Assembly: GCA_023379935.1 (NCBI GenBank) | Contig: JAMCPD010000018.1 | Span: 4,567 to 68,566, forward strand | Length of the DNA: 64,000 nt | Reading direction: 5' to 3' | From: Actinomycetota bacterium | GTDB taxonomy: Bacteria; Actinomycetota; Acidimicrobiia; Acidimicrobiales; JAMCPD01 | Part shown: in pieces, positions 1-33,946 of the stretch | Numbering within the stretch: the first letter of the stretch is position 1 | Layout of the letters: each line of letters opens with the position of its first letter | Position numbers and translations under genes: made by a program | Notes under the pieces: generated by a model | Seen by the model: the letters and a program-made list of their open reading frames with translations, nothing else | Database searches by the model: none | What the model was told of the DNA's origin: nothing

Positions 1-3000
1 TGGATCACTCCCATTCACCGGATCACCTCCCGCATATACATAAGGCTGGCCACTTATAGCAACTAGCGGATCAACAGAGGTAAACTGTCCTGTAACAGGG
101 TCGTAGTAGCGGTGTATCAGGTAGATAAGACCTGTTGGATCTGTGTAGCCACCGGCATAACCAAATGGGGTAATAGAGGAGACCCCACCTGAGGTCACAT
201 TTCCATAAGCATTATAGGTTGCTTCACCTGTTAGGTTGCCGGAAGAGTTGAAGGTAAATCTTACTCCTTCAGGATCAGAGTAGAGATAAGTGACAGATGT
301 TGATGATGTCGGGCTAGACAGTGATATCTGTTCTGTTGGTGCAGTTCCTTGAGGTCCGTAGATATAGGCATTTGATCCGTCCATCAACAGCTGATCAGAG
401 AGGGTATTCCAAACAAACTGTTGGCCAGTAGCATCGGGTGAAGTCTCAGACATTCTAAGGCCGTCTGCATTGTATGAATAGGTATAAGAAGCTTGAGAGT
501 TTGGGTTTTGACATGTAGCACCAAATTGGTTTCCCGGAGTGAGGCAGTTCATGTTGCCTCGAAGATCATAACCATAGGTAGTGGAAAGAGAAGAGTTGGG
601 GTTTTGACATGTAACACCAAATTGGTTAGCCGGGGTTGCACAGGTTCTTTCTCCTATCTGGTTGTATGAGTAGGTAGGTATAGTATCGGAAGGATAGTTG
701 GGAGGTGATCCAAGTCCACAACCACTCTGAGCTACCCCAGAAGAAGGTTGCACGGAAGATGAATAACATAGCTCACCCGCTGAATCATAAGAGTTGAAAG
801 TAGAAGGTGATGAAGGGTTTGAAGGGACAATTGAGGTTAGTTGAGAAGCGAGTGAATATCCATAGGATGCCTGTGGCCATGAAGAGGTTACCCTAGAAAG
901 TGGATCATAGCTATATCCAGAACTCATCTGGGATTGAAGTTCTCCGTTTATGAGAACTGTATTGGAACTAAAGCGTCCTGTTACATCTTGGTTCCATCCA
1001 TCTTCTATATACCAGTTGAGATTGCCGGGAGTTCCCTCAGAGATCATATCACCGGTATAGTCATTGGCATTGTCGTATCCCAGCCACTGGCTATCTAAGG
1101 AGGGCTGTGTTGAAGCAGGATAGATGACAGATTGTAGATTACCGTTTGGGTCATATGTGTAGCTTGTTGTATTTGAAAGCCAATCTGTCATACTTGTCAT
1201 CTCACCTGTTTGGTTATATGTGTAGTCTAGCACAGTATTAGAAGGCGATGGGGGTGAACTACAAGTTGGATTTGGTGCTATAGGATATGCAACACAGACA
1301 AGGTTGCCATTGTTATCATATCCATAAGAAACTGTCTTTCCTGCTCCGTCAGTTTCAGACACGAGACGGCCAAGCCCATCATAGCTGTAAGTGGTAGTAC
1401 CGGTTGGATCAGTCATTTGTGTGAGCTGCCCACCCTGGTTGTATTGATAGGTTGTGTTGATTGAAGGAACAAGAGCCAGGGCCATTAACCCAGGTTCACA
1501 AAAAGTATTACTTGAAGTAGCAGCGCTACAAGAGGCTGTAGTAGGTGTACCAATTGTAGCTATAACTTTATCTGTTGTAAGGTTGAGTTCCGATACTGTT
1601 GAGTTGGCAGGATTTGTAACCCAAGCGTGGTCTCCCAAAGGTCCAACCACTATATCAAAGGGGTTGTCAAGTACATTATTAGCGCTACCGGTGATTGTGG
1701 TGATTATTGAATCTGTAGTGGTGTTTATTACAGCAACAGCATTGTCAGAAAACTCCGGTACGTAAGCATAGTTTCCGTTTGGACTAAGTGCAACAGTATA
1801 GGCAGGGGATGGAAGTGACACTGAACTTATCTGACCTGTAGTTGTGTTTATTATATCCAAGCTTCCGGAAGTACCGTTTTGAGAAGTATTGGCCACATAA
1901 AGAGTAGAACCATCTGAAGAGATAGCCGAACCCTCAGGAGAGTATATATTTGGACTTGTAAGCGTTCTACATACAGTATACAAAACACAGGATGTACTGT
2001 TAGAAGTTGAAATTACAGCTATATTACCTGGTGTCGGTCCTACTCCAATAACAGGGACAACGACAATATCTGATACATAGAGCCACTTCCCATCGGGACT
2101 TTCAGTCATTAAAATGGGTATTCCCGGCACTTTTATCGTAGTGACAACGGTGTTGGTGGCAGTTGAAACAACAGATACCGTAGCATTGGACGAATCTGTT
2201 ACATATAAATACTGTGCATTTGGGCTAAGTGATAGGGCAAGGCCTACCGGCCCAGCCGGAGGGGCTGAAGGCCCAGCTATTGGAATCGTATCTGTAACTT
2301 GATCTGTTGCTGTATCGATTACAGATACAGTGTTTCCCTTCCCTTGTCCGTAGTTTGCAACGTATGCTTTAGTGCCATCGGCTGAGACAACAATATCTGT
2401 TGGATCTTGTCCAACTGATATGGGAGTACCGGGAGTAGAAGTGCCGTTTTGAAGGTCCACAGGGGTTACTTGTGCGCCGCCCATGTCGCCAACCAACAGT
2501 TGTTTTGACGGAGATATCGCAAGGGAGCGAACAAGACGTCCTGCTGGATCATAAAAAAAGCCTTGTTGGCTTATTGGGGTTGTTTCACCTGTAAGTTGTC
2601 CGGCAATATCATAGGAATAAGAGGTTGTCCTGGCAAGTGGATCTGTGACAGAGGTTGGAAGTGATGGATATGCCGGGTTGTTGTACTGATAGCTTGTGAT
2701 ATTCCCATTTGGATTTGTTGATGACACCACATTGCCGAGTGAGTCATATGAATAATCAGTAATTGCAGCTTGAACAGTCCCCGATCCATCTGTTACAGAT
2801 GCAAGCTGATCATCCTTGTTGTATTGATAAGTAGTTGTTCCGCTAGGAGTTGTAACCGATAGAACGTTTCCATCTTTGTCATAGGTATAGCTTGTGGTTA
2901 TTCCAGAAGGAGAAGCGGGAGTAGGTGGAGTTGTTGTGCTGGCAAGTTCTCCGGCATTATTGTATGTGTATGTGGTTGTATATAAAGATGGAGGGTCAGA

Positions 3001-6000
3001 AGGTGAGGCATGTTTGTCACAAGTTGAGCTCTGATTTGGCCAATGATTGTTCTTTTTGAAACTCTTGGTAAAGTTTCGATTTGCCTTACAGGTTTTAGGG
3101 ATAGCCACAGATGCCAAAGCTATACTTGTTGGGGTCGGTCCAACAAAGATGTTTGGACCAACCTTGGATGTTTTTAGATTGATTGGCACAAGATTTCCTT
3201 GGATATAAGAGGTCACATATCCGTATCTGTTATCTTTTGAAAGTGAGATCCCAAGCGGAGAAGGAACTTTATAAGATGAGACCTCTTTTATATCGTGACT
3301 TGTTGAGCCTTTCAAACCAAAAATAGAAGCCAACCTTTCAAGTGAATGACAGTAAAAGGTTTCATGTGGCAAGCCGGAGCATTTGTTGGCCACTGCAACA
3401 AGGTGCGAAAGCAGTTTACAGTATAATGAAGATAGAGTTAGGCTGCATTTTGAAGGCAGTTTATAAGTATGTATGGTATTGTCTTTTAGCAACAATACCA
3501 GATTGGAAGAGTAAACGCTGACTGCGATCCTATCGCCATCAATGCCAATTCCGGCAGGGTTAGACCCAACTTGAACCGGTGGAGCGGCAGTTAAAGTTGG
3601 TACTCCATTTTTAGTGTCTGGGATAGATATTGAAACCGGCGTAACAGTACCCGAGAACCAGTTTGTCACATAAGCTTCATTTTGAGCTTCCGCCAAAGAT
3701 GGCAAAAGTGCGCCTTGACCTGTTTGAACTGGAGTTCCAACCTGTTTTGTTACAAGGTTTACAGGAGTAAGTGTGCCTTGATCAAAGTTTGTCACATACC
3801 CATATTTGCCGTTCTTGGATACTGTTATTCCAACAGGTGAGTTGCCAACTTGAATTGGTGTCTCTAGAGTCATGGTCTTTAGATTTACAACTATTAGATT
3901 AGATGAACCTAATCCACCTGTTGCATAGAGGGTACTTCCGTTTGGAGACAGTGCCAACATTCCTTTTATCAAAGTTGAACTTTTTACGTCTTCGGTCCCG
4001 ATATACAAACTATGTATGATCTTTTGGGTCTCAGTGTTTATTACAAAAAGCTCACCGGATGAAAAACTTACAACATACAGTTGCTTTCCGTTTCTGCTTG
4101 CAACAAGTGTGTCCGGGGTAACACCTAAAACAATGGGATTGCCGGTAGTGCAGGTTGAAAGATCAACCGGAACTATTGCATCACCTGTTTTGTCTGCAAC
4201 AAATGCTATCTTTTGCTCACGGCTATGGTAAATATAGGCGGTTTTCCCATGAATGTTCGGGCACCCCTTTTGTGGTGTAACAACGGCAGGCGGAAGAAAC
4301 GGTATACAGGGGGAGTTCCCACATGTGGGGCTGGTTGACGGAGTTGGAACTTGTTGTGTGGTTGAGGTTTGAATTGGCGTCTCTGGCATATTGGTTTGAG
4401 TATTGATGGGAAGTATCACAGGGTCAGAACCGTATTCGGTTACATAAACTGTTGCTCCATTTGGAGAAACCGCCACATCAAAAGGTTCAAAGCCAACAGG
4501 TATGGTGTCTACGACAGAAGATGAGGCCGTAGAAATGACACTTACAGTTCCAGAACCCGCATTTGCCACATATAATGCACCTCCTAATGAACCTCCTCCA
4601 TTTGATGAAACGGCTATCCCAATTGGCCAGTTGCCAACTTTAATTGGAGTTTGTGGCTGATTGTTTGCCAAGTCAATCGGGATAACTTCACCGGATCCGG
4701 TAGAGGTATTTGTGACAGTTGTCACATAAGCCATAGTAGGAGTTGCTGTTATCATAATCGGAGTGCCAGGAAGGCTGATGGGATAGCCCGCGCTCCAAGT
4801 GCCACCGGTTTCTGTAAGGGGAGTGACCTCATCAGACCCAGCATCTGTCACATAAGCCCTGTATGTAGATGAGGTGTTGGTGGAGGTGATAGCTACGTCT
4901 ATGGGTTTTGATCCGACATATATTGCTTGGCCGGGTTGATCGTTTGTAAGATTTATCGGAGTCACGGTACCCGGATCAACATTGTTTACAACAAGTGCAG
5001 ATGTTCCATCCGGGGTAGTTGCAATTCCTATAGGGTTTTCTCCAACCGATATGGGAACATCAGAGGATAGTACAGCAGGTGGCGTAGCGGAATCAATGGG
5101 AGTTATAGGGGTGACCTGTCCGCTTAGCACGTTTGAAACATAAAGCTTTTCTCCAAGATTTGGCACATTTGCAAGTGCTATCATAACCGGGGTATCTCCA
5201 ACTTTTAACGGTTGTCCTGGTTGTCCGTTTGTAAGATTTATTGCGGTTACAGTAGACGAAGAAGTGTTTACAACATAAGCATTGTTGTTGCCCACGACAA
5301 TGCCCGTCAAATTTCCCGATAAGGTATCCGGTAAGCCAACAGACATCAGATAGCCTTTTGGTGATGTAGAAGATGTGACCTGTCCGTCTGCATTGTAAGT
5401 ATAGGTGGTGACATCTCCTTTAGGATCAATTGTAGCGACTATATCACCATGGGTGTCATATTCGTAGCGCCAAACTGCACCGTTTGGATCTGTGATTGCG
5501 GTGACATTAGTAGGATAAGCGGGGTCACCATAGGTGTAGGTGGTTGTTGTTTCTCCTCCCGTACCTCCGTCTTGTATAACAGACGTGAGAAGGTCGCTGG
5601 AATCTTGGAGCGTACCATTGACTATCCCAGTCGTCCCCCCGCCATACAAATACGTCGTTTCCGGCAGTGAAGAAGAGGCGGGAGGGATCACGTCTACAAC
5701 TTCATTATATTGATTATAGGTATAAGTGGTTGTTTCACCATCTGGGTTTGTATAAGAGGTAATATTGCCTTCTAGATCGTAGGAAAGATAGGTCACAGAA
5801 CCGTTTGGCGCAACTACTTGGCACGGCTCCATTACAGACAAGCTATTGGTGTTGGTACCGGGTTGGCATATAAAATAGCCGTAAAACCAGGTGGCCATCT
5901 GGGGGGTACCAACCCCGGTTGCCTCTGCTTCTAAAACATTCCCGTCCGCTCTGTAGAGATAGCCTGTCACAGAGCCATTTGGTAAAACCACAAGTGTGGC

Positions 6001-7416
6001 GAATAATGGTTTTTCATTGGTATCAAAAGGGTGGTCTGAATAGTGGTTTTCTTGATAGTAGTTTTCCAGAGACTGATAAATGGACTGTGCATCACCGATA
6101 CCGTTACTAGGACACTCCGTGGAGTTGTTTTCCGTGAAGTTGTTTGTATTTGTATATAAACTGAACTCACCGTTGTAAGGATAGTAGCAGTAATAGGTTG
6201 TATTTCCATTGCCATCAGTTTGAGAGACAATGGGATAGTAACTACTACTGGAGTAAGAACTACCCAATTCTAACGGTGAACTACCATAGGTACTGCTGGT
6301 GAGGGGTGTTGCGGGAAGGGATATTCCGGAACTGGTTGTGATTGGTTGTCCATCAGGATAAGTTATGGAACTGAGGAGACTGGGGAGACTGGGGGAGTTG
6401 TTGGAAGCGGCGGTGTAGGAAAATGAAGTCAGTTTCCCAAGGGGATCAGTAATGCCGGTAAGTTGATCGCTGCTGTTGTAACTGAATTGCTCAGTACGCC
6501 CCATTGGATCTATCGCCTCTATAACTTGAAAATTTGAATTTTTTACCAAAGTAAGACTTTGGCCACTGGTAATATCGGTGATAACGGTACAGCTGGCAAC
6601 TTCAGAACTTTGCGGCGGGCAGGTATTAACACCAGGAGAGACGGTAGTAAAAGTAGTTGTATTGCCATTCCCATCTGTTATTTTAGAAAGAGTTCCCGTG
6701 TAAGTTCCTACGTTAATGGAGCTTATACCGGTAAAGTAGAAGTTTTCTGTTCCATCGTTACGAGAAAGTACAAAGTATGGCTTGGAATAAAGAAAGGTTG
6801 CTGTTGTAATTGTAGTAGGAGTAGATGATGTGTTTACATTAACAGCAGTCCAGGGCTCCCCAGCGCAAGGAGAGGACCCAACACTCCCAATAGGAATACT
6901 AATGCTTGTTGTGTAGGAAACCTCCGAACCGTTCTCCTGAGTAATTGTAGCTGTACAGTTATAGGTAGTAGAAAAAGAGATAATAGAAGAATAGGTACTA
7001 GGTAACGATGAATTGCTAACTGCATTCACCTGTAGCGTAAGTTGCATTGATAAGTTTGACGAAAAACCAATTCCAAAGGGAGAAGTTGGGGGAGGAGTTG
7101 ATGTGGAACTTGTTTGGTTCAAAATATCTTGGGCTTCAAGCGAGTTGTAGTTAAGGGTAAAAGGGAGGTTGATGCCGGCCACAGGGGCGGTCAAAGCAGT
7201 TTTAATCGAATCAGTAAACTCTCCGTTGAAAGGGTCGCAGTAGTTCACTTGTGGCGAAGTTGGTTGTGGAATTGACTTACCTATCTTGTTCAAAGCCCCG
7301 TTGAGATTGGTATTTGAAGGATTACAAGGCCCATCACGAGGTGTACGATAAACTCCATTTACAAATCCAGTTAGTGAAAAGTGTGAATGTGCTATGGGGG
7401 GGGGGGGAGAGAATCC
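1..7416 (-). CDS. RHS/YD-repeat polymorphic-toxin-type protein body with three YVTN-like beta-propeller blocks. The 3' end lies beyond the window, and the body is separated from its signal peptide by the frameshift at 7396-7407.
   Basis: The minus frame with codon first bases at coordinates divisible by 3 is open from 7416 to 1. It is absent from the ORF track because it meets no stop inside the window; the three listed minus ORFs in this span are in another frame. My translation gives YD repeats (RYEYDTHGDIVATIDPKGDVTTYTYNADGQV; YSYDGLGRLVSETDGAGKTVSYGYDNNGNL). It also gives the RHS core end LIHRYYDPVTGQFTSVDPLVAISGQPYVYAGGDPVNGSDP at 1-150. Confidence 0.8.
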
Positions 7417-7586
7417 TTAACGCTTCCAAGAAGTATGGTTACAAGCATTGTGGCCAAAATGCCACGTATTGATATCGATACGAAAAGACGTATACGAGGG
7501 AATAAGCTTCCCCTGTCTGCTTTAGAATAGTATTGGCTTTGAAATAACTGAAATAACATGGCCCTCTCCTTATTATCTATGAGCAT
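7392..7586 (-). CDS. Signal-peptide-like leader ORF of the RHS gene, ending inside the poly-C tract
   Basis: The ORF track lists 64 aa. PRIRLFVSISIRGILATMLVTILLGSV reads as a basic n-region plus a hydrophobic h-region. The ORF ends LPPPP-stop within the C12 run. One extra C (or two fewer) joins it in frame to the RHS body. Confidence 0.6.
   Translation of the reverse strand: MLIDNKERAMLFQLFQSQYYSKADRGSLFPRIRLFVSISIRGILATMLVTILLGSVKDSLPPPP
7396..7407. repeat. Homopolymer G12 (C12 on the coding strand), the longest mononucleotide run I saw in the window
   Basis: Counted directly: gctat + 12 g + aga. Confidence 0.95.
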
Positions 7587-7906
7587 ATTTTTAAACTATT
7601 TATATTCGCCGTTCATACATTGAACCACACGTTAAATAAACATGATTATGTAATCATACAATTAATTGGTTCAGTTATGCAAATTTAAAATATATTTTTT
7701 TTACAGTTGGCGCGTCTTGCTCAGCTCCTAATAATATCCGCTACATGTGCGACACACGTGGGGTTTAAAGCAAGAAGACCAATTGAGTGTTAGCAGCTGA
7801 TATGGAAGAATATTGTCAAGTCACAATCGCCTGAAACTGGCCATTGACAGCGCCTATATGGTCAAGCGTCACCTCTATGGGATCTGTAGCTACTTCTCTA
7901 CAGCTA

Positions 7907-9075
7907 GTGTACTGTCCACCATATCACCACGCGGTTGTGGTATAATGAGGTATGGCTCATCCACCTGCACCCAAATTGAAACTGTCCCCTACTGATAGGC
8001 GTTTTTTAGAAGAGATATCCTCTTTTCCGTCCCGCCCTCACCGAGAAGTTCCTCAGGCCAAGGGTCTACTCATGGCATCTAAAAGGTATTGCCAATATGA
8101 AAATCGCAGATACTCTCGGTGTATCACGCTCAACTGTCATTACCTGGAGAAAGCACTTTTCAGTAGATGGTGTTAAAGGCATTGGGAAGGTTCGCCCAGG
8201 TCGTGGCAGGAAACCCTCCATTGCACCTGAGATAATAGAAAGAGTTGTCAGAGACACTCAACAGACAACTCCTGTCAAATGCTACCCAGTGGTCAGTTCG
8301 AACTATGGCAGCCCATGTAGGGATATCAAAATCCAAGGTGCAAGAGATCTGGGCATCACGTGGACTAAAGCCCCATCTGGTAAAGACTTTCAAACTCTCC
8401 AATGAGCTTAGATTTTGAAGAAAAGCTTGTTGACGTGGTAGGTCTTTATCTTGGACCCACCCGATAATGCTGTAGTCCTATCTGTAGATGATGAAGTCCC
8501 AGATCCAAGCCCTGGATCGTACTCAGCCGTCACTTCCCATGAAAAAAGGTCGAGCTGTGTTAGCAGCTGGGACTATGACTCATGACTACAAGCGTAACGC
8601 CCACCACGACACTCTTTGCCGCTTTAAATATATTGACAGGCATGGTAATTGGAACCTGTATGGAAAGACATCGACATGAAGAGTGGTTGAAGTTCCTGCG
8701 ACTCATTGACAAAAACATCGACAAAGAACTTGATATCCACCTGAATTGCAGACAACTACGCTACCCATAAACACCCCGAAGTAAAAGCATGGCTTAAAAA
8801 GCACCCAAGGTTTCACATACACTTCCGCTTCAACAAGTTCATCATGGCTAAACCTTATAGAATGTTGGTTTAGAGATATAACAACAAAACGTATAAGGCG
8901 TGGAAGCTTTCCAAGCGTCAACAATCTCATAAATGCAATTGAAGACTATATTGCAATCAACAACGAATCACCTACCCCTTTCACGTGGACCAAAACCGCA
9001 AATGTAATTATCGAGAAGGTAAAGCGTGGTCGTGTGGCCCTTGAGCAAGCGCGTATTATTTAATGAACACTACAC
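7907..9075 (+). mobile_element. Decayed IS630-family insertion sequence (~1.17 kb)
   Basis: Imperfect terminal inverted repeats: GTGTACTGTCCA at 7907-7918 and TGAACACTACAC at 9064-9075 (reverse complement GTGTAGTGTTCA). TA precedes the left end. The interior is filled by IS630-type transposase fragments. Confidence 0.65.
7952..9061 (+). pseudogene. IS630-family DDE transposase, broken by several frameshifts
   Basis: The pieces lie in different frames. They include the HTH part IADTLGVSRSTVITWRKHF, then [39 protein letters not shown] and DNYATHKHPEVKAWLKKHPRFHIHF. The last piece is STSSSWLNLIECWFRDITTKRIRRGSF...TWTKTANVIIEKV. Confidence 0.8.
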
Positions 9076-9173
9076 TGGCGCACAGCCAACTGCATTTGCT
9101 ATCGTATAACAAACAGTTCAACAAACAGTATAGTAATCCACAAGAAGATTTGGATATGGGAGATTTAGATACG

Positions 9174-9932
9174 ATGGAATTAAGTCTGGAAGGAAAAATA
9201 GCGTTGATAACGGGTGCTTCAAGAGGAATCGGTAAAGCGACAGCAGAGCGTTTCTCATCGTCTGGGGCAAAAGTTATGATCACATCACGAAAAGCCGAGG
9301 CAATTGAGGCGGTGGCAAAATCATTACCCGGTGAAGCTCATTGGTTTCAAGCTAACGCAGGAGATGAACAACAGGCAAAAGATTGTGTAGCCGCATGCAT
9401 GGACCGTTTCGGCGGACTGGATATACTGGTCAACAATGCAGCCACAAATCCCTACATGGGACCCATGTTGGAGATTGACAAATCACGTGCCGACAAAACT
9501 TATCAGGTCAATCAATGGGGCCCGCTACTGTGGACAAAATTAGCCTGGGAAGCAGCGATGAAGACAAGAGGCGGGGTTGTCGTAAACCTGTCATCCGTAG
9601 GGGGCATAAGCGTTGAGCCCGGTATCGGATGGTACAATGTGTCCAAGGCGGCCGTTATTCATATAACCAAGCAACTGGCTGTTGAAATGGCGCCAAAAGT
9701 TAGGGTAAATGCCGTTGCACCCGGATTGGTTAAAACTTATATGGCAAAAGCAATATGGGAAAATGCCGAAGACTACATATCATCGATACTTGCACTCGGG
9801 CGAATTGGTGAGCCGGATGATATTGCAAAAGCAGTCCTTTTCCTGGCCTCAGACGCCTCCTCTTGGATGACGGGACATATCATGGTAGTGGACGGCGGAG
9901 CACTTCTCGGCATGCGGGGGGGAGTTAGCTAA
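9174..9932 (+). CDS. Short-chain dehydrogenase/reductase (SDR)
   Basis: TGASRGIG cofactor motif, NNAA, and YNVSKAA (YxxxK). The ORF-track start at 9063 lies inside the IS right end, so ATG 9174 (or 9156) is preferred. Confidence 0.85.
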   Translation: MELSLEGKIALITGASRGIGKATAERFSSSGAKVMITSRKAEAIEAVAKSLPGEAHWFQANAGDEQQAKDCVAACMDRFGGLDILVNNAATNPYMGPMLEIDKSRADKTYQVNQWGPLLWTKLAWEAAMKTRGGVVVNLSSVGGISVEPGIGWYNVSKAAVIHITKQLAVEMAPKVRVNAVAPGLVKTYMAKAIWENAEDYISSILALGRIGEPDDIAKAVLFLASDASSWMTGHIMVVDGGALLGMRGGVS

Positions 9933-9986
9933 AATAACCCCCGGCACTTTCTTACTTGGGCGAAAGGACCGTCTTTGATCTGTTTT

Positions 9987-11576
9987 TTAAAGTACCTTGG
10001 TCTGATGAGCGCTCCAGTACTTGTCGCGTAAGAGATGTTTATGAAGCTTGCCGCTCGGGTCTCTTGGTAAAGTATCGGTAAACTCAATAGAACGCGGACA
10101 TTTGTAATGTGCTAAGTTATCGCGACAAAACTTAGTCAGTTCTTCACCGAGAGCATCTAAGATGTCTGAGACGTTCGGTTTGCCATCCAAAACTGTTGGC
10201 ACTACAACAGCTTTTACCTCCTCACCCATTTCAGCATTTGGAACGCCAAATACTGCTGCGTCTGCAACTTTAGGGTGGGTTATAAGCAGGTTTTCGACTT
10301 CTTGGGGGTAGATATTTACACCACCCGATATGATCATATAGCTTGATCGATCAGTCAGATAAAGATAACCTTCCTCGTCCAAGTGCCCTATGTCGCCCAG
10401 TGTTGTCCAACCGTTTTTATGGCGAGTAGGGATGGTGGAACTTCCGAGGTACTCAAAATCGCCCCCGCCTTCAAAATAGACTAACCCATCTTGACCGGCT
10501 GCTAACTCCTCACCTCCCGCTTCAGCTTGTAGATCCTTTTCACCGTTCGGCTCGTCGGAATCTGCTGGAGCGGCTACTATATGAATCTTACCAACCAAAG
10601 CCTTGCCGACTGAACCTGGGTGAGCCAACCACTGCTTAGAGTCGATAGCAACAAAACCATTCCCCTCTGTTCCGGCATAATATTCATGCACAATAGGACC
10701 AAGCCATTCGATCATTGCTTTTTTGATATCTATAGGACAAGGTGCAGCGGCGTGAACAACACACTCAAGGCTGGATAAGTCATAAGAGCGTCGTTTTGCG
10801 GGGTCTAACCTGAGTAGTCGGATAAACATGGTTGGAACGACCTGGGTATGGGTAACCTTGTACTTTTCTATGGTCGCCAAAAAATCCTCAGGATCGAAGT
10901 GCACCATGGATATGAGAGTTGCACCTATGCGTTGTTGCGCCATAGAGAAACGAAGCGGTGCCGCATGATACAAAGGAGCGGGACAAAGGTAAACCGAATC
11001 GGCATTTTCGCCATAAAGTGCCTGACTCAAAAGAGCAATTGCATCAGGTGCGTCCATTGAACGCCCAACCCGAAGAAGCCTAATTCCTTTAGGCTTACCG
11101 GTTGTACCTGACGAATATAACAAGTCAGCACCCTGTAGCTCACCTTCCAATACGGCATCATCGGCTATGTTGGAAATCTTTTCGACAAGTTCATCCACCA
11201 TCTCAAGCTCTCCTGTCAGTCGATCCGCCAGTCTGGCCTCCGGCGTGTTTAGTTGATCGAAGCAAACATCTGATATCACTATCTTGGCTTTGCAGTCGTT
11301 TGCTATGTAAGCGGTTTCTTCGGGACTGAGATGTGTGTTGATTGGTGTGTAGTAAAGTCCGCTGCGTGCACAAGCCCAAGCTATTGAGAAAAACCGGAGA
11401 CTGTTGGGAAGGATAAAAGCCACGTTATCACCTTGTGATACTCCCCGAGAACGCAGCCATAATGCCACTTTTCTTGAGTTTTGTTCCAACTCTTTATAGG
11501 TCAGAGTTTCCCCTGTGTCGGCCATAACGCAAGCGGGGGAGTCAGGTTTTGTTTTTGCATATGTTCCCGGATACAT
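9987..11576 (-). CDS. AMP-dependent synthetase/ligase (acyl-CoA synthetase family)
   Basis: YSSGTTGKPKG AMP-binding motif, and GWTTLGDIGHLDEEGYLYLTDR. Confidence 0.85.
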   Translation of the reverse strand: MYPGTYAKTKPDSPACVMADTGETLTYKELEQNSRKVALWLRSRGVSQGDNVAFILPNSLRFFSIAWACARSGLYYTPINTHLSPEETAYIANDCKAKIVISDVCFDQLNTPEARLADRLTGELEMVDELVEKISNIADDAVLEGELQGADLLYSSGTTGKPKGIRLLRVGRSMDAPDAIALLSQALYGENADSVYLCPAPLYHAAPLRFSMAQQRIGATLISMVHFDPEDFLATIEKYKVTHTQVVPTMFIRLLRLDPAKRRSYDLSSLECVVHAAAPCPIDIKKAMIEWLGPIVHEYYAGTEGNGFVAIDSKQWLAHPGSVGKALVGKIHIVAAPADSDEPNGEKDLQAEAGGEELAAGQDGLVYFEGGGDFEYLGSSTIPTRHKNGWTTLGDIGHLDEEGYLYLTDRSSYMIISGGVNIYPQEVENLLITHPKVADAAVFGVPNAEMGEEVKAVVVPTVLDGKPNVSDILDALGEELTKFCRDNLAHYKCPRSIEFTDTLPRDPSGKLHKHLLRDKYWSAHQTKVL

Positions 11577-11679
11577 AGTATTAATGATAGCCTGGTTTCA
11601 CTATGGTGGTTTTATGGATAAAAATATCGGTATAGGTCGGTGAATACGCTGATGTGCCACATCATGCTATGAGTACACT

Positions 11680-12966
11680 TTGGTGAAGATGGTTTTCGAA
11701 GATTTAGAGTACAGAGGACTCGTTTACCAGTTCAGCGATCCATTGTTGAAGAAACTACTGGACTTAGAACAACTGGTAGTTTATGCCGGTTTTGATCCTA
11801 CCTCCGATTCGTTACATGTTGGTCACCTGCTGCAGATCTGCAACTTGAGACGCTTGGCCGAGAAAGGACACAAGCCCATCGTTGTACTTGGCGGTGCAAC
11901 GGGAATGATAGGTGACCCCTCAGGTAAGACAGAAGAGAGGCCATTGATGGAACCTGAACTGTTGAACCATAACATCAAATCCCTACAGGTACAGTTTGAA
12001 CGGTTATTGGGAGAAAAATACCCGGTGAAAGGTGGCAATTCTCCGATCATAGTAAACAACTTGGACTGGATGAATGACCTGGGATTACTTGATTTCCTTC
12101 GAGATATCGGCAAACATTTTGGCATAGGGCAGATGATAGCGAAAGAGTCAGTCCGCTCCCGTATTGGAGAACATGCTGTCGGTATATCTTTTACCGAGTT
12201 TAGTTATATGTTGTTACAGGCATATGACTTCTTGCACCTGTATGATACCTTCGGTTGTCGTTTACAGATAGGTGCGTCTGATCAGTGGGGGAATATAACT
12301 ATGGGAATAGAGTTGATCGCAAACATGCGCAAAGCCACGGTTTTTGGTTTGACATCGCCGCTTATCGTAAAATCTGACGGTACTAAATTCGGTAAGACCG
12401 AGTCCGGCACTATTTGGCTTGATGAGAAAAAGACCAGCCCATATCGACTGTATCAGTTTTTTTACAATGCCTCCGACACTGAAGTTGCAACCTGGCTTCG
12501 TTATTTTACCGATCTGTCACATCAGGATCTAAGCGAATTAGATAATGAGGTCACAACAGCTCCAGCTGATAGGGTTGCTCAGCGTGAACTTGCCCGCCAA
12601 GTTACAACTATGGTCCATAACAAGCAGGCGGCCGACAGAGCAGAGTTTGCATCAAAGGCCCTCTTTGGAGGTGAGCTATCACTTTTGGACGAAAAAACAC
12701 TCTTAGATGTCTTTTCCGACGTGCCGTCAGTCGTATTTCCCAGAACTAACTTGGGTGAGATGACATTGGTGGATATGATGGTTGAATCCAATATCGCACC
12801 TTCTCGTGGGAGCGCGAGGCGAACTATTGACCAAGGAGGAGTCTATCTGAACAACTTACCAGTAAGGGACACCGAATTACGTATAGATACAAGCAGGCTG
12901 CTCTGCGATGCTTACTTAGTGTTGAAAAAGGGAAAGCGAGAGATTCGGTTACTGCGTTTTGCCTGA
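11680..12966 (+). CDS. tyrS: Tyrosine--tRNA ligase
   Basis: HVGHL (HIGH) and KFGKT (KMSKS-type) motifs, plus a C-terminal S4-like domain. The start could be ATG 11689. Confidence 0.9.
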   Translation: MVKMVFEDLEYRGLVYQFSDPLLKKLLDLEQLVVYAGFDPTSDSLHVGHLLQICNLRRLAEKGHKPIVVLGGATGMIGDPSGKTEERPLMEPELLNHNIKSLQVQFERLLGEKYPVKGGNSPIIVNNLDWMNDLGLLDFLRDIGKHFGIGQMIAKESVRSRIGEHAVGISFTEFSYMLLQAYDFLHLYDTFGCRLQIGASDQWGNITMGIELIANMRKATVFGLTSPLIVKSDGTKFGKTESGTIWLDEKKTSPYRLYQFFYNASDTEVATWLRYFTDLSHQDLSELDNEVTTAPADRVAQRELARQVTTMVHNKQAADRAEFASKALFGGELSLLDEKTLLDVFSDVPSVVFPRTNLGEMTLVDMMVESNIAPSRGSARRTIDQGGVYLNNLPVRDTELRIDTSRLLCDAYLVLKKGKREIRLLRFA

Positions 12967-13650
12967 GGTTATTAGAGTTTTATCTCCCGACTTTCCTTTG
13001 CGGACTTTATCAAGCAACTGTTCAAGGATTAACTGTGGATCTACTCCCTTGATCCAACAGATAATAGTGGCAGTAATTCCTACACAGTCAACAATTGTGA
13101 CAACTATAGGCGGGATGCCGTTTCCATAAGGTTCGGGCAGAGCATGTAGTGAGTAGAACAGTCCTTGTGCTCCAGCCCCCATGTCCCAAAAAAAAGCGGC
13201 AATGACGGAGCCATAAAAATAGTCTGAGTCTTTGAACCACAGCATCGGTCCCAACCATGCAAAGAAGAGTAATGACCAAAGGGGTCCAATGCGAAAAGAG
13301 TCGGGTATCAGCCCCGCGGCAGGGAAAAACAACATACCTATAAGAAACAGCAGAAAAGCAAGCTTGTTGATCGGCACACTTATAGCAGGTAAAAACGCTA
13401 TGCAAAGAAATATCCCGGCAGGTATTGCCAAAAACATGGTTGAAAATCCATGCCAAGACTGCGGTAACAGCAAGATCAGCAGATGTACGGTTGCAACTTT
13501 CGGAATGGCACCAAAAGTCTTGACAAGTGGAATGGTCTCGGAAAATAGAAGCCAAAGTATTAACGAAACCCCACAAAACGCTTTTACCGCTGCATTATTT
13601 ATGAAAGGGTGAGCATCAGGCAAACCGGTTGATTGTTGATTACTTTCCAT
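12949..13650 (-). CDS. Polytopic membrane protein, function unknown
   Basis: 233-aa ORF with multiple hydrophobic segments. Its 3' end overlaps the tyrS 3' end by 18 nt (convergent). Confidence 0.6.
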   Translation of the reverse strand: MESNQQSTGLPDAHPFINNAAVKAFCGVSLILWLLFSETIPLVKTFGAIPKVATVHLLILLLPQSWHGFSTMFLAIPAGIFLCIAFLPAISVPINKLAFLLFLIGMLFFPAAGLIPDSFRIGPLWSLLFFAWLGPMLWFKDSDYFYGSVIAAFFWDMGAGAQGLFYSLHALPEPYGNGIPPIVVTIVDCVGITATIICWIKGVDPQLILEQLLDKVRKGKSGDKTLITSGKTQ

Positions 13651-13947
13651 ATCTTCACGATAACATAGTTTGACCAGTTCTGTATTTTCTCAATCGCGCC
13701 GAGGATCCATTCATCCGGATCATCAGAGCACTTTAACGGCTGGTTGATCCCCAAGTGCCACTAACCGTGAGTGGTCGAGAACACTGCAGAGTGAGCTGGC
13801 TCCAATTTCTCAGCTGCCCCGGCAGACTCGACAACGCAATACAACCCGAGCTTCCCGGCCAACTTCTCCAGATTAGTAATTTCCCAGCCAGATATTCCCA
13901 CTCGTCGTCTTTTTGCCTGACTCACGGTTTAGGAAACAGATAGAGTT

Positions 13948-14020
13948 AGTCCGTCTAGTAGTGTCTAGTATCATTTTGCCTGTTCAGTCGGGGTGTCAGT
14001 CCGTCTAGTATCGTCTCGTA
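13948..14020. repeat. Phased direct repeats GTCT(A/C)GTA x4 (two pairs, 10 bp within a pair, 50 bp between pairs)
   Basis: gtctagta at 13953, 13963 and 14003; gtctcgta at 14013. The 13-mer agtccgtctagta occurs at 13948 and 13998. Confidence 0.8.
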
Positions 14021-28045: not shown

Positions 28046-31000
28046 TTATCCATACCATCCCTCCACATCTACTATAACGTCGGCAGATCCCGATTTGTTG
28101 TAGATAGATATGGCGCCAGACGATGATAGGGGGACCACAACCAGGTTTGATACCGTAGATCCCGATGCCCAGTTCAAGTTGGATGCTGTCGGTTGGGCAG
28201 TACCTTCAGGCCATACGGTAAGGTAGCTGCTTTGGGTGGTGTCGGTTACCGTTATGTTGGCCACTACTGCGCCGATTGAACCGGTTGGTATACCAGAAAC
28301 CCCCGATACCTGAACGTTTAGCACAGAACCGGTCGATAAGGTCTTTCCCGTACAGGCGGCTGCAGCACCGGTTAGCGCAGAAGGATTCGAGGGACGGGTG
28401 TCGCATATCCTAGTAGGGGAGGTAGAGGTAAACACAGTACCAGAAGGGCTGGTGGAAGAGCTGGAGGTATACCATCCCTCCACATCTACTATAACGTCGA
28501 CAGATCCCGAGTAGTTGTAGATAGATATGGATCCAGACGATGATAGGGGGACCACAACCAGGTTTGATACCGTAGATCCCGATGCCCAGTTCAAGTTGGA
28601 TGCTGTCGGTTGGGCAGTACCTTCGGGCCATACGGTGAGGTAGCTGCTTTGGGTGGTGTTGGTTACCGTTATGTTGGCCACTACTGCGCCGATTGAACCG
28701 GTTGGTATACCAGAAACCCCCGATACCTGAACGTTTAGTACAGAACCGGCCGATAAGGTCTTCCCCGTGCAGGCGGCTGCAGCACCGGTTAGCGCAGAAG
28801 GATTCGAGGGACGGGTGTCGCATATCCTGGTGGGGGATCCAAGAGGATTGTACATTCCCGATGGCGAAGAACCCGGCCCAACCCATCCCTCCACATCTAC
28901 TATCACATCAACAGATCCCGCGTAGTTGTAGATGGATATGGCTCCGGAAGATGATAGACCTATCTCAACCAGAACCGACTTTGTCTTGCCTGACACCCAG
29001 TTCAAGTTGGATGCTGTCGGTTGGGCAGTACCTTCAGGCCATGCGGTGAGGTAGCTGCTTTGGGTGGTGTCGGTTACCGTTATGTTGGCCACCACTGCGC
29101 TGATTGAACCGGTTGGTATACCAGAAACCCCAGATACCTGAACGCTAAGTGTTTCAGGGTTAGGGCCTTTTCCTAACGTGTCACCGGCGCAAGGTTCTCC
29201 TGAACCGGCGCGCGTATCACATATGCGGGTTGGCACAGCCAAGCGGTGATAGGCATTACTCAGGTACGTTGTATACCATCCCTCCACATCTACTATAACG
29301 TCGGCAGATCCCGATTTGTTGTAGATAGATATGGCGCCGGACGATGATAGGGGGACCACAACCAGGTTTGATACCGTAGATCCCGATGCCCAGTTTAAGT
29401 TGGATGCTGTCGGTTGGGCAGTACCTTCGGGCCATACGGTAAGGTAGCTGCTTTGGGTGGTGTTGGTTACCGTTATGTTGACCACTACTGCGCCGATTGA
29501 ACCGGTTGGTATACCAGAAACCCCCGATACCTGAACGTTTAGCACAGAACCGGCCGATAAGGTCTTTCCCGTACAGGCGGCTGCAGCACCGGTTAGCGCA
29601 GAAGGATTCGAGGGACGGGTGTCGCATATCCTAGTAGGGGAGGTAGAGGTGAACACAGTACCAGAAGGGCTGGTGGAAGAGCTGGAGGTATACCATCCCT
29701 CCACATCTACTATAACGTCGACAGATCCCGAGTAGTTGTAGATGGATATGGATCCAGACGATGATAGGGGAACCACAACCAGGTTTGATACCGTAGATCC
29801 CGATGCCCAGTTCAAGTTGGATGCTGTCGGTTGGGCAGTACCTTCGGGCCATACGGTAAGGTAGCTGCTTTGGGTGGTGTTGGTTACCGTTATGTTGGCC
29901 ACTACTGCGCCGATTGAACCGGTTGGTATACCAGAAACCCCCGATACCTGAACGTTTAGCACAGAACCGGCCGATAAGGTCTTTCCCGTGCAGGCGGCTG
30001 CAGCACCGGTTAGCGCAGAAGGATTCGAGGGACGGGTGTCGCATATCCTGGTGGGGGATCCAAGAGGATTGTACATTCCCGATGGCGAAGAACCCGGCCC
30101 AACCCATCCCTCCACATCTACTATCACATCAACAGATCCCGCGTAGTTGTAGATGGATATGGCTCCGCTTGGACCCAGTGGTACTTCAACCAGAACCGAC
30201 TTTGTCTCGCCTGACACCCAGTTCAAGTTGGATGCGGTTGGTTGGGCAGTACCTTCGGGCCATATACTCAAGTAGCTGCTTTGGGTGGTGTTGGTTACCG
30301 TTATGTTTGCCACCACTGCGCTGATTGAACTGGTTGGTATACCAGAAACCCCCGATACCTGAACGTTTAGCACAGAACCGGCCGATAAGGTCTTTCCCGT
30401 GCAGTCTACGGCGGCACCGGTTAGCGCAGAAGGATTCGAGGGACGGGTGTCGCATATCCTGGTAGGAGATCCAAGAGGGGTATACGGACCTAATGCCGGT
30501 TGAGCCAGTTCAAGACTCATATTGCTGGATAGGATCACTCCGCTTGAGCTGTCTTGAACACTGTTTGAGGTTGATGGGTTACCTGTGCCGACAGTCCAAC
30601 AAAACGCTGTTGAGGGACAGCTCAGTGAAGTTGAGGAGTAAAGAGAAACCGAAGTAACTCCTTGCGCCAGCGGTATTTCACTCCAGCTTTTCCCGCTGTC
30701 GGTAGTTGCAAGTGAGATTGGGAGAGATCCGGCAACCCCCGATGATGCCATTGCCCAGCAGTCAACTGAGTTGGGGCAAGATATTGAATATACAGCATCA
30801 ACCGAAGACGGAAGGGGTGTTTCAGTCCATAACGCTCCCGAGTCGTTTGTCGTAAGCATCACAGCGCCCCCTATTGACGTGGAGTTCAGCAGATAACCTC
30901 CGGCCAGGCATACACCAGTTGTGGGACAGTACACAGTAGCGATATCCCCAACCGCAGATGGTATGGTTTGGACGGTCCAAGTTGCACCGGAATTGGAGGT

Positions 31001-31864
31001 TGTCAATACCACTCCCTGCTGATTGTTGGGAGATCCGTTAGTTCCCGATAGCCAACAGGTAGTCGATGTTGGGCAGGAAACAGACTGGGGAGAAAATGAA
31101 GAGATGGGAACGGTCTCAGGCGACCAACTGGCTCCTCCGTTTGTTGTAGACAGTATAAGCGGTGTCCCTTGCCCGTTATTTTCGGTGCCGGCGGCAAAGC
31201 AGTAATCGGGAGTCGGACAGTCTATCGTTTTCAGGGAGATCGGCCAAGAAGAGAAAACGGCCGAAGGAATGGTTTGAGGCGACCAACTGGCTCCTCCGTT
31301 TGTTGTAAAGAGTGCGACGGTAGTCGTACCGTTATTATCCGTACTATAGCCGACAGCCCAACAGTTGAACCCGTTAGCACACCAAACAGCGGAAAGTACG
31401 CTCGGTGCATTGGCGGTAGGTATGGTATCACTGCTCCATGTAGAGCCTGAATTCGAACTTTGTAAAATTACGGGAGCATTGTTAGATGTATCGTAGTTAC
31501 CTACCGCAAAACACGATAGAAATGTTGGACAAGAGATTGAATTCAGTCCAATCCCGGAATTTACGTATTGGATATTCCAACCATATCCGGGTGTAGATAA
31601 GGTTGTGCCAGAATTGACTGCATGGGGGGCAACTGCAGATGGTTTATAGGGCGCGGTGGCAGTATTGGAAGTGACAGTATTGGAAGTGACAGTATTGGAA
31701 GTGACAGTATTGGAAACTGTCGTAGATTGTAAATAGTAAGAGCCGGATAAAAACAGTAATATAAATATGGATCGCAATACCAAGGTTGATATCGATCGGA
31801 AACACCGCAAGTGTAGTTTTTCGGTTATGGCATCACTTTTGGATATACTGCGGTCTTTGGACAC
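28046..31864 (-). CDS. Secreted/anchored surface protein: six-bladed Asp-box (BNR) propeller plus six tandem copies of an uncharacterised ~125-aa domain
   Basis: N-terminal hydrophobic segment. Six SxxxGxxW boxes (SNSGSTW, TNGGASW x2, SNSGATW, NDSGALW, TDSGKSW), each blade with a CPxxxxC pair. Six units carry RICDTR...NITVT...SNLNW...DVIVDVEGW. Confidence 0.85.
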   Translation of the reverse strand: MSKDRSISKSDAITEKLHLRCFRSISTLVLRSIFILLFLSGSYYLQSTTVSNTVTSNTVTSNTVTSNTATAPYKPSAVAPHAVNSGTTLSTPGYGWNIQYVNSGIGLNSISCPTFLSCFAVGNYDTSNNAPVILQSSNSGSTWSSDTIPTANAPSVLSAVWCANGFNCWAVGYSTDNNGTTTVALFTTNGGASWSPQTIPSAVFSSWPISLKTIDCPTPDYCFAAGTENNGQGTPLILSTTNGGASWSPETVPISSFSPQSVSCPTSTTCWLSGTNGSPNNQQGVVLTTSNSGATWTVQTIPSAVGDIATVYCPTTGVCLAGGYLLNSTSIGGAVMLTTNDSGALWTETPLPSSVDAVYSISCPNSVDCWAMASSGVAGSLPISLATTDSGKSWSEIPLAQGVTSVSLYSSTSLSCPSTAFCWTVGTGNPSTSNSVQDSSSGVILSSNMSLELAQPALGPYTPLGSPTRICDTRPSNPSALTGAAVDCTGKTLSAGSVLNVQVSGVSGIPTSSISAVVANITVTNTTQSSYLSIWPEGTAQPTASNLNWVSGETKSVLVEVPLGPSGAISIYNYAGSVDVIVDVEGWVGPGSSPSGMYNPLGSPTRICDTRPSNPSALTGAAAACTGKTLSAGSVLNVQVSGVSGIPTGSIGAVVANITVTNTTQSSYLTVWPEGTAQPTASNLNWASGSTVSNLVVVPLSSSGSISIYNYSGSVDVIVDVEGWYTSSSSTSPSGTVFTSTSPTRICDTRPSNPSALTGAAAACTGKTLSAGSVLNVQVSGVSGIPTGSIGAVVVNITVTNTTQSSYLTVWPEGTAQPTASNLNWASGSTVSNLVVVPLSSSGAISIYNKSGSADVIVDVEGWYTTYLSNAYHRLAVPTRICDTRAGSGEPCAGDTLGKGPNPETLSVQVSGVSGIPTGSISAVVANITVTDTTQSSYLTAWPEGTAQPTASNLNWVSGKTKSVLVEIGLSSSGAISIYNYAGSVDVIVDVEGWVGPGSSPSGMYNPLGSPTRICDTRPSNPSALTGAAAACTGKTLSAGSVLNVQVSGVSGIPTGSIGAVVANITVTNTTQSSYLTVWPEGTAQPTASNLNWASGSTVSNLVVVPLSSSGSISIYNYSGSVDVIVDVEGWYTSSSSTSPSGTVFTSTSPTRICDTRPSNPSALTGAAAACTGKTLSTGSVLNVQVSGVSGIPTGSIGAVVANITVTDTTQSSYLTVWPEGTAQPTASNLNWASGSTVSNLVVVPLSSSGAISIYNKSGSADVIVDVEGWYG
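28049..30490 (-). repeat. Tandem super-repeat of 1,221 bp (3 domain units) x2, near-identical over most of its length
   Basis: ORF-track pairs are offset by exactly 1,221 nt: 28410..28886 vs 29631..30107 (152/158 aa identical) and 28693.. vs 29914.. Protein units 2 and 5 are identical. Confidence 0.9.
31661..31720 (-). repeat. 15-bp in-frame tandem repeat x4 (SNTVT)
   Basis: agtattggaagtgac x3, plus one imperfect copy. Confidence 0.9.
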
Positions 31865-33265: not shown

Positions 33266-33844
33266 GTGAGGTATTATATGGGCAACAAACCCAACGGTAT
33301 TTTTGCTGACGGCACTGTGCTTGGCGATAACGCAAACAACATTGGTGCTGTAGACAGTTTTAGCGGACCACAAGTTTGCAAGATAGTCAATATCAGCTAT
33401 CGCCAACTTGATTATTGGGCGACAACGGGACTGCTCACCCCATCTATAAAGGATGCTAACGGCAGTGGATCAAGACGCCTCTACTCCTACGAAGATTTGC
33501 TGGAACTAAAGGTAATAAAGCGGCTTTTGGACGCAGGAATATCCCTTGGATCTTGCAGAAAGGCCATACGCTGCCTAAGAGACAACCTTGGTAATAGTTT
33601 ACGCTCGGCAAGCTTGGTCTTAACCGGCACGAACTCTGTTATGGCAAAAAATGGTAATGAGATTACAGATTTACTAAAAGGTGGACAAGGTGTTTTCAAT
33701 ATAGTTCCGTTAGCCGGTGTGGTGCAAGAGTTGGAAGCAGCCGTTTATGATTTGGCAAAGGCCAGACAGCAGATTGAGAAATCAGCAGATGAAGATCGAC
33801 CAAACTTGGCAGTTCAACCGCCGAATAAAACAGCCGCTCTATAA
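33266..33844 (+). CDS. MerR-family transcriptional regulator
   Basis: VCKIVNISYRQLDYWATTGLLTP...RRLYSYEDLLELKVIKRLLDAG. The probable start is ATG 33278. Confidence 0.75.
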   Translation: MRYYMGNKPNGIFADGTVLGDNANNIGAVDSFSGPQVCKIVNISYRQLDYWATTGLLTPSIKDANGSGSRRLYSYEDLLELKVIKRLLDAGISLGSCRKAIRCLRDNLGNSLRSASLVLTGTNSVMAKNGNEITDLLKGGQGVFNIVPLAGVVQELEAAVYDLAKARQQIEKSADEDRPNLAVQPPNKTAAL

Positions 33845-33946
33845 TCTATACCTTTAGCAAAGATATAAGTTGAGACCTTAGGTATATTCTGTGTAAGCTT
33901 AGACCGTATGATTTCCTTCCCTCTTCACACTTTCGGCCGCCCATAG

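Follow-up and report, generated by a model that had tools for sequence, protein, structure and literature searches.

A stretch of 64,000 nucleotides of contig JAMCPD010000018.1 (hereafter the window) carries at its left end, on the minus strand, a giant gene of the RHS/YD type whose product is the subject of this analysis. The region encodes an RHS/YD polymorphic toxin that most resembles the Gram-positive WapA-type contact-dependent toxins. Taken as a whole, the evidence below makes it likely that this is an exported toxin of an uncultured Acidimicrobiia-like actinomycete, in which one shell carries three inserted propellers and is followed by a toxin tip and its immunity protein, and of which the sequenced copy is out of frame (OFF), mis-assembled in length or restored by slippage. 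The usual description of RHS toxins is that of a sealed cocoon without features, whose specificity is placed in the N-terminal delivery module and the C-terminal tip. This locus and a relative with 36% identity instead represent a conserved design with three binding-type propellers built into the shell wall, in a host lineage that is barely known.

The RHS shell and its three YVTN propellers

The main open reading frame (ORF) is free of stops from position 7416 to position 1 of the window (minus strand, 2,472 codons) and runs off the left edge. Its translation is 100% identical to the protein P0001, which is 2,592 residues long, and the full-length product extends 176 residues past the window edge. 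A sequence-only reading of this DNA had described an open minus-strand frame of about 7.4 kb, and the frame is indeed unbroken and contains all three peptides quoted there; its extent to position 7586 as one frame did not hold, because the open frame ends at 7416 and the leader that starts at the ATG at 7559 lies in another frame. The Pfam model RHS_repeat (PF05593) matched the main ORF in 13 stretches (E-value 4e-66) and TIGR01643 matched it in nine (E 1e-53). Segment scans, motif scans and a YD hidden Markov model (HMM) placed the YD repeats at residues ~303-690, 1479-1632 and 1987-2410, consistent with the three blocks proposed before.

These repeats belong to three shell blocks, all on the minus strand. 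Block 1 (residues 57-690; window 5347-7248) consists of an N-terminal plug equivalent and degenerate N-terminal repeats, shows RHS_repeat matches in both halves and is colinear with the N-terminal halves of ordinary RHS shells. Block 2 (residues 1446-1632; window 2521-3081) matches RHS_repeat in seven stretches (E 1.6e-36) and joins blocks 1 and 3 without a break when the propellers are deleted. Block 3 together with the RHS core (residues 1986-2472; window 1-1461) again matches RHS_repeat, is 30-40% identical from end to end to the C-terminal shells of many RHS proteins, and has the Rhs protein 7Q97 as its best PDB sequence match (E 1e-22). As the sequence-only reading had it, the frame reaches the window edge within the RHS repeat-associated core: the autoprotease region (...HRYYDPVTGQFTSVDP...GGDPVNGSDP; window 1-216, minus strand) is matched by TIGR03696 on residues 2401-2472 with 58.5 bits against a cutoff of 32.5, covering profile positions 1-73 of 76 before the edge cuts it off.

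Between the YD blocks lie three blocks of a different kind, each of which was scored on its own against the YVTN repeat model TIGR02276, whose curated cutoff is 27.85 bits. All three exceed it: propeller 1 (residues 691-1031; window 4324-5346, minus strand) with 74.6 bits, propeller 2 (residues 1051-1445; window 3082-4266, minus strand) with 45.5 bits, and propeller 3 (residues 1633-1985; window 1462-2520, minus strand) with 77.8 bits. Thus, the YVTN blocks had been correctly recognized from the letters, with coordinates right to ~60 bases. A motif scan found about seven blade signatures in each block (of the YV[TV]N type in propeller 1), and propeller 2 also matched PQQ_ABC_repeats (E 4.5e-19). 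Furthermore, a profile built from the three blocks retrieved 1,679 proteins, the top 120 of which (to E 5e-47) were all stand-alone YVTN/YncE/lactonase propellers; the best stand-alone YVTN match of propeller 1 had an E-value of 1e-26. Because MAFFT misaligns RHS and propeller repeats when homologues are mixed, whether full-length or trimmed, and a two-propeller alignment straddled the domain boundary, the structure model covers propeller 3 and short, low-confidence flanks. In this AlphaFold model (100 homologues), the predicted local distance difference test score (pLDDT) is mostly >90 over model residues 47-372, with ~28 strands and a predicted template modelling score (pTM) of 0.77, and the top Foldseek match in the PDB is the archaeal S-layer propeller 1L0Q, the founding YVTN structure (E 2.6e-22, 31% identity, root-mean-square deviation 2.6 A over 321 columns).

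According to this model, propeller 3 is a closed fold of seven blades, and the number of blade motifs suggests that propellers 1 and 2 would likewise fold as seven-bladed propellers. The three intervening blocks are real propellers. The possibility that they are divergent YD repeats, which the sequence-only reading had itself named as an alternative to be checked by HMM and structure, is ruled out by the YVTN scores, the propeller-only matches of the profile and the fold of block 3. We also rejected the idea that the propellers are recent tandem copies, since each is nearer to stand-alone YVTN proteins than to its siblings, which indicates that they are old acquisitions.

Propeller 2 contains a degenerate stretch at residues ~1324-1400 (window ~3217-3447, minus strand) in which Lys, Cys, His and Leu are abundant (there are four Cys and several His) and which is unlike the remainder of the protein. 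A hidden frameshift was considered here and rejected, because the other frames contain stops; this stretch could be a metal-binding or disulfide loop.

The relationship of the three YD blocks to one another was examined with a propeller-deleted construct assembled in silico from residues 57-690, 1466-1632 and 1986-2480 (1,296 residues in total, with junctions at 634 and 801). This construct aligned with continuous RHS shells as a single BLASTP high-scoring segment pair (HSP) across both junctions, including P0064 (query residues 4-1295, E 8e-81), P0045 (query residues 182-1296, E 6e-94), and also P0070, P0059, P0061, P0071 and P0102, with junction indels of 0-17 residues in most continuous shells and up to 31 in P0061. 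The three YD blocks therefore make up one standard shell and, judging from these alignments, the propellers are clean insertions at two points of it: two in tandem at ~49% of the shell length and one at ~62%. Moreover, the alignment begins where P0064 and P0007 carry their DUF6531 plug domains, which identifies residues ~60-140 (DPFNGEF...LNYNS...FGIGF; window 6997-7239, minus strand), colinear with the DUF6531 domains of P0064 (418-500) and P0007 (521-594), as a DUF6531-like plug equivalent.

These positions bear on a different role for the propellers, in which they would act like the TcB propeller, closing the cocoon and docking on a separate translocator that injects the tip. The propeller of Tc toxins does cap the cocoon and gate release (PMC8765631), and propeller 2 of mosquito SGS1 extends the chamber (PMC9935623). 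However, the present protein already has a plug-equivalent N-terminus, as in ordinary Rhs proteins, its two insertion points lie away from the N-terminal mouth, its propellers are canonical symmetric YVTN domains, and there is no gene for a TcA-like or other translocator among the window ORFs or downstream in the sister contig described below. We consider such gating very unlikely.

The layout is not confined to this gene. In an HMMER scan of 1.84 billion representative proteins with residues 1281-2472 as the query, two of the best 150 hits, which were inspected, share its junctions. P0256, which comes from another genome and another context (downstream of pheST in contig L092), is colinear with the main ORF in one HSP (query 38-1927 to subject 1-1833, 36% identity, 895 bits) and has the block order YD / propeller / propeller / YD / propeller / YD; propeller 2 matches its second propeller over the full length (E 4e-87). 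P0277, a fragment of 285 residues from a mine-drainage metagenome, spans the junction from YD block 2 to propeller 3 with 69% identity. The shared layout and junction indicate a conserved design of a small family, and they also rule out an assembly chimera, in which pieces of a YVTN gene would have been mis-joined into an RHS gene. Such an error might be suspected given the repetitive nature of both domain types and the origin of the sequence from a metagenome-assembled genome (MAG); nevertheless, two assemblies agree on 14 kb at 99.993% identity, the reading frame is maintained through all junctions, the block order recurs in P0256 and the mine-drainage fragment spans one junction separately, so that the probability of this explanation is close to nil. 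In L092, the homologous RHS-YVTN gene stops at the start of YD block 3 (11724-12258), where a transposase-like ORF follows at the contig end, and this copy appears to be interrupted.

Other relatives carry different inserts. P0007 (residues 939-1378) and P0049 (residues 1048-1502) each contain two copies of an unannotated domain of ~190 residues within the YD shell, at different positions. The insert of P0007, which has 436 residues and is unrelated to the propellers, lies ~25 residues from junction 1. A shared insertion hotspot was considered on this basis and set aside as speculative only, because P0007 alone maps near junction 1 and the same domain type occurs elsewhere in P0049. In P0082, NHL blocks come after the plug and the first YD repeats; P0038 bears FG-GAP repeats mid-shell, and the YVTN-type propeller of P0102 precedes the plug. 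In further relatives, inspection or Pfam pointed to LamG/FN3-like, PKD-like or FG-GAP blocks. A broader idea is that actinobacterial RHS shells are display scaffolds whose mid-shell loops accept receptor-binding domains, such that insert swaps would set the target range and tip swaps the toxin type, with the poly-C tract described below switching expression in this lineage; we regard this as possible but rather doubtful.

Cleavage motif, tip and candidate immunity gene beyond the window edge

The cleavage motif, the C-terminal tip and the immunity gene had been predicted to lie just to the left of the window, and the motif, a tip and a candidate for the immunity gene were found there. Window bases 1-6 encode the DP of DPSGL, and P0121, a cluster mate of P0001, continues as ...GGDPVNGSDP/SGLAWYD..., with the window edge inside the motif; the core-end sequence ...QPYVYAGGDPVNGSDPSGL of P0001 and P0121 fits PxxxxDPxGL. 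A 60-mer from the left edge had no exact match in genome_contigs or metagenome_contigs, and the extension came via P0121. The sister contig L007 (GCA_023489215.1) aligns gaplessly with window 1-14000 at 99.993% identity and continues for another 6.1 kb. Past the motif, it contains, in order, the 173-residue tip (also present in P0001 and P0121), an ORF of 89 residues, an ORF of 219 residues and three orphan core+tip fragments. The orphans combine an RHS core and a DPxGL motif with a tip that differs from one to the next, small ORFs lie in between, and the orphans share 559, 413 and 316 bases with the 3' end of the main gene at 85-97% identity, an arrangement that is classic for tip swapping by recombination. 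The third orphan tip (L007 22037-23239) carries an HETKH (HExxH-like) motif and has no Pfam match, which hints at a metallopeptidase-type toxin.

The main tip is rare, having only 13 relatives among 5.8 billion proteins. These relatives share a C-terminal module of ~75 residues with invariant His/Arg/Gln/Asn/Thr positions. It likewise terminates a PT-HINT protein and further RHS-core fragments, in keeping with a polymorphic-toxin domain. In the AlphaFold model of the tip, this module has a pLDDT >90 and the order beta-alpha-alpha-beta-beta-beta-beta, and the ~95 residues preceding it are disordered. The top Foldseek folds were the CdiA-CT NC101 tRNase, the colicin D tRNase and RelE, which are weak but coherent matches (E 0.06-0.5). 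From this predicted fold, we propose with moderate confidence that the tip is a ribonuclease (RNase), probably a tRNase, of the barnase/EndoU/colicin/RelE fold.

The stop of the toxin gene and the 89-residue ORF overlap in an ATGA arrangement. In two unrelated loci, L008 and L010, homologues of this ORF (53% and 24% identity) immediately follow homologues of the tip on the downstream side; one of them is again 89 residues long with a 4-base overlap. This co-travel with the tip supports an immunity role, and we infer that the 89-residue protein is a candidate immunity protein. The closest tip homologue (84% identical) and its immunity homologue form an orphan pair (L008/L009 4001-5091) between two phage-integrase genes and beside a primase and a TrwC relaxase, and these neighbours place the pair on an integrative or conjugative element.

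It might be argued that the protein is mainly a teneurin-like surface adhesion scaffold with a vestigial tip. The presence of three propellers points to binding functions, the leader might remain uncleaved as an anchor, and teneurins retain an inactive toxin (PMC8765631). On the other hand, the cleavage motif is intact, the tip module is conserved down to its invariant residues, an immunity-type partner travels with the tip, and the orphan cassettes are maintained. A primary role as an adhesin is thus highly improbable, and a working toxin remains the preferred interpretation.

Gene start, leader and the C12 tract

The sequence-only reading overlooked the true start of the gene and its out-of-frame leader. 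A Shine-Dalgarno-like AAGGAG (window 7566-7571, minus strand), as read from the sequence, lies 6 nucleotides upstream of the ATG at 7559, which opens a leader ORF (window 7392-7559, minus strand) of 55 codons that ends in SLPPPP before a TAG stop. Translation and hydropathy of this leader reveal basic residues followed by a hydrophobic core at residues 25-45, and it looks like a Sec signal or a signal anchor. Between leader and body there is a Pro run encoded by C12 on the coding strand (G12 on the plus strand; window 7396-7407). It is the only such run in the window, no comparable homopolymer runs being found elsewhere in the window or in any of 100 shuffles. At a length of 12, the leader is out of frame with the body, and 13 or 10 C would fuse them. 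All four Pro codons of the tract are CCC, which accounts for 18% of the Pro codons in the main ORF, so that four in a row would occur by chance with a probability of ~0.001. The body frame is without a plausible start bearing a ribosome-binding site, and annotators chose GTG or TTG. The homologous leader in L092 is in frame, its Pro run being written GCA CCG CCA CCT, and the fused leader and body of the window can be aligned with it through the tract, with 39% identity in 109 residues (E 4e-22). This alignment indicates that the gene starts at the ATG at 7559 and that the sequenced copy is one base out of frame.

Export is further supported by the cysteines of the protein, 32 of 33 of which fall in 16 close pairs, as fits disulfides in an exported protein. 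Pfam scans of the main ORF and its segments gave no PAAR match; given in addition the Sec-like N-terminus and the actinomycete host, the protein does not have the profile of an Rhs effector of a type VI secretion system (T6SS).

Several causes of the C12 state are possible: a slippage switch, transcriptional slippage, a sequencing artefact or mis-assembly, or recent inactivation. The gene has the hallmark of contingency genes, namely that the frame depends on the length of a long homopolymer in the 5' coding region; in the literature, no direct precedent was found for Rhs genes governed by homopolymer slippage. Searches for tract-length variants returned C12 in both assemblies, and the variable-run pattern and the leader ORF gave no further copies, a weak test of length variation.

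Recent inactivation leads to the view that the gene is a decaying pseudogene, in which the C12 frameshift has permanently cut off the leader and the protein is no longer made or exported. The out-of-frame C12 is identical in two assemblies, an insertion sequence (IS) remnant lies ~500 bases upstream, and the L092 homologue is itself cut by the transposase-like ORF. Nevertheless, ~7.9 kb of body are without stops or further frameshifts, the sole lesion is a one-base change of length in a slippage-prone run, and this run uses the less-used CCC codon throughout. In addition, the two assemblies, being 99.993% identical, may share the same error and are perhaps not independent, and long G/C runs are error-prone in sequencing. 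We therefore regard permanent decay as unlikely.

In the preferred reading, that of a functional exported toxin, the leader would send the protein through Sec, and the shell would enclose the tip until the aspartyl autoprotease of the core frees it after DPSGL. The propellers may sit on the shell exterior, by analogy with the inserted receptor domains of SGS1 and in view of the insertion sites and the plug equivalent, where they could bind a putative surface structure of the target or producer cell. The tip would act as an RNase, probably a tRNase, the 89-residue protein would neutralise it, and recombination with the orphans might swap tips. The C12 run, leaving the leader out of frame, would make the sequenced copy OFF, unless its length is mis-assembled or slippage restores the frame. 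Several observations weigh against this reading. The leader/body junction is frameshifted as sequenced, with the same C12 length in the window and in L007. The Pfam DUF6531 model gives no match on the plug region of the main ORF. The tips and small ORFs have no Pfam, NCBIfam or PDB sequence match, and the best fold match of the main tip reaches only E 0.06 (probability 0.92, TM-score 0.50 on the target), none being at or below 0.001.

If the propellers are receptor-binding modules, they offer a route to the target choice of Gram-positive RHS toxins and to the tolerance of the shell to engineered insertions. The locus also yields a candidate toxin/immunity pair that is unannotated, and a toxin gene with a candidate on/off switch.

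Genomic neighbourhood and comparison with known systems

The neighbouring genes are housekeeping genes for glutamate synthase, glycine cleavage, tyrosyl-tRNA synthetase (TyrRS) and acyl-CoA synthetases, and the TyrRS is 51-58% identical to those of Acidimicrobiales MAGs. Scans of the window detected no T6SS, type VII secretion system or TcA-like genes, tRNAs or Rfam elements; upstream of the glycine-cleavage genes (33266-33946), no glycine riboswitch or other Rfam family was found. The IS remnant mentioned above is an HTH_29 ORF of 102 residues (8097-8405, plus strand), corresponding to the N-terminal part of an IS630-like transposase; no DDE part follows, and identical copies occur on four short Logan contigs. 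An ORF of 1,272 residues (28046-31864, minus strand), adjoining a D-Ala-D-Ala carboxypeptidase gene, has a G+C content of 0.50-0.53 against ~0.46 and only weak BNR/YCF48-like and DUF7709 matches. Two adjacent ORFs of 981 and 620 residues without Pfam matches (39362-42307 and 42307-44169, plus strand) lie in a stretch of markedly negative AT skew (-0.11 to -0.20).

Among known systems, Bacillus subtilis WapA has a Sec-type leader, a shell of YD repeats and an RHS core with DPxGL, followed by a variable toxin at the C-terminus; an immunity gene lies downstream, orphan cassettes are present, and there is no T6SS or PAAR module. Its N-terminus bears wall-binding repeats, and its shell is continuous. 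The present locus shares the Sec-type leader, YD shell, DPxGL core, variable tip, downstream immunity candidate, orphans and lack of PAAR. It differs by the three YVTN propellers that interrupt the shell and by the lack of a detected wall-binding domain.

In its cocoon, plug, autoprotease and tip, the protein conforms to the Rhs paradigm (PMC8765631). In the Tc toxins, the TcB propeller gates and closes the cocoon (PMC8765631). The TcB-TcC pair resembles our protein in that a propeller is associated with its RHS cocoon and that it has an aspartyl autoprotease and a tip enclosed in the cocoon, as the tip would be here; however, TcB has a single propeller that docks on TcA and its cocoon is built from two chains, whereas here three mid-shell YVTN propellers belong to one chain, with no TcA-like gene in the window or in L007. 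A precedent for insertion with a solved structure is mosquito SGS1, in which four of the five domains decorating the Rhs/YD shell, including the second propeller, are insertions in the YD sequence (PMC9935623). The inserted propeller has nine blades, is distorted and extends the chamber; a carbohydrate-binding module, a lectin domain and a wedge domain make up the other inserts (PMC9935623). SGS1 thus shares YD-inserted decorating domains, one of them a propeller, and also has a seven-bladed propeller, but it is a eukaryotic salivary protein whose insertion sites and domain types are unlike those of this locus.

An NHL propeller sits at the plug of teneurins and bacterial teneurin-like proteins, the Gram-positive ones among which use Sec (PMC13018210; PDB 9IFO/9PT5). 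They share with this locus the combination of plug, propeller and YD shell, the C-terminal shell being 35-40% identical to relatives such as P0007, P0053 and P0082. Nevertheless, they have one six-blade NHL propeller at the FN-plug, compared with three seven-bladed YVTN propellers at two mid-shell sites here. No ORF segment gave a significant NHL or TEN_NHL match (NHL was sub-threshold only, E 0.12-0.29), and the relatives P0007 and P0082 do carry these domains.

At the level of single domains, 1L0Q and YncE are the best structural and sequence relatives of the inserted blocks, but they are stand-alone or N-terminal surface domains rather than insertions in an RHS shell. Similarly, CdiA-CT of E. 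coli NC101 and the colicin D tRNase domain are the top fold matches of the tip module, yet they show 17-21% identity (E 0.06-0.3) and share no sequence family with the tip.

The sequence-only reading had called the architecture unfamiliar. It is unusual, and our literature search found no description of this RHS layout with three YVTN propellers; precedent does exist in SGS1, TcB, the teneurin-like proteins and the NHL- or FG-GAP-bearing database relatives. Overall, the insertion of domains, propellers included, into Rhs shells is a known principle, and the novelty here lies in a Sec-type actinobacterial toxin with three YVTN propellers inserted at two places in mid-shell.

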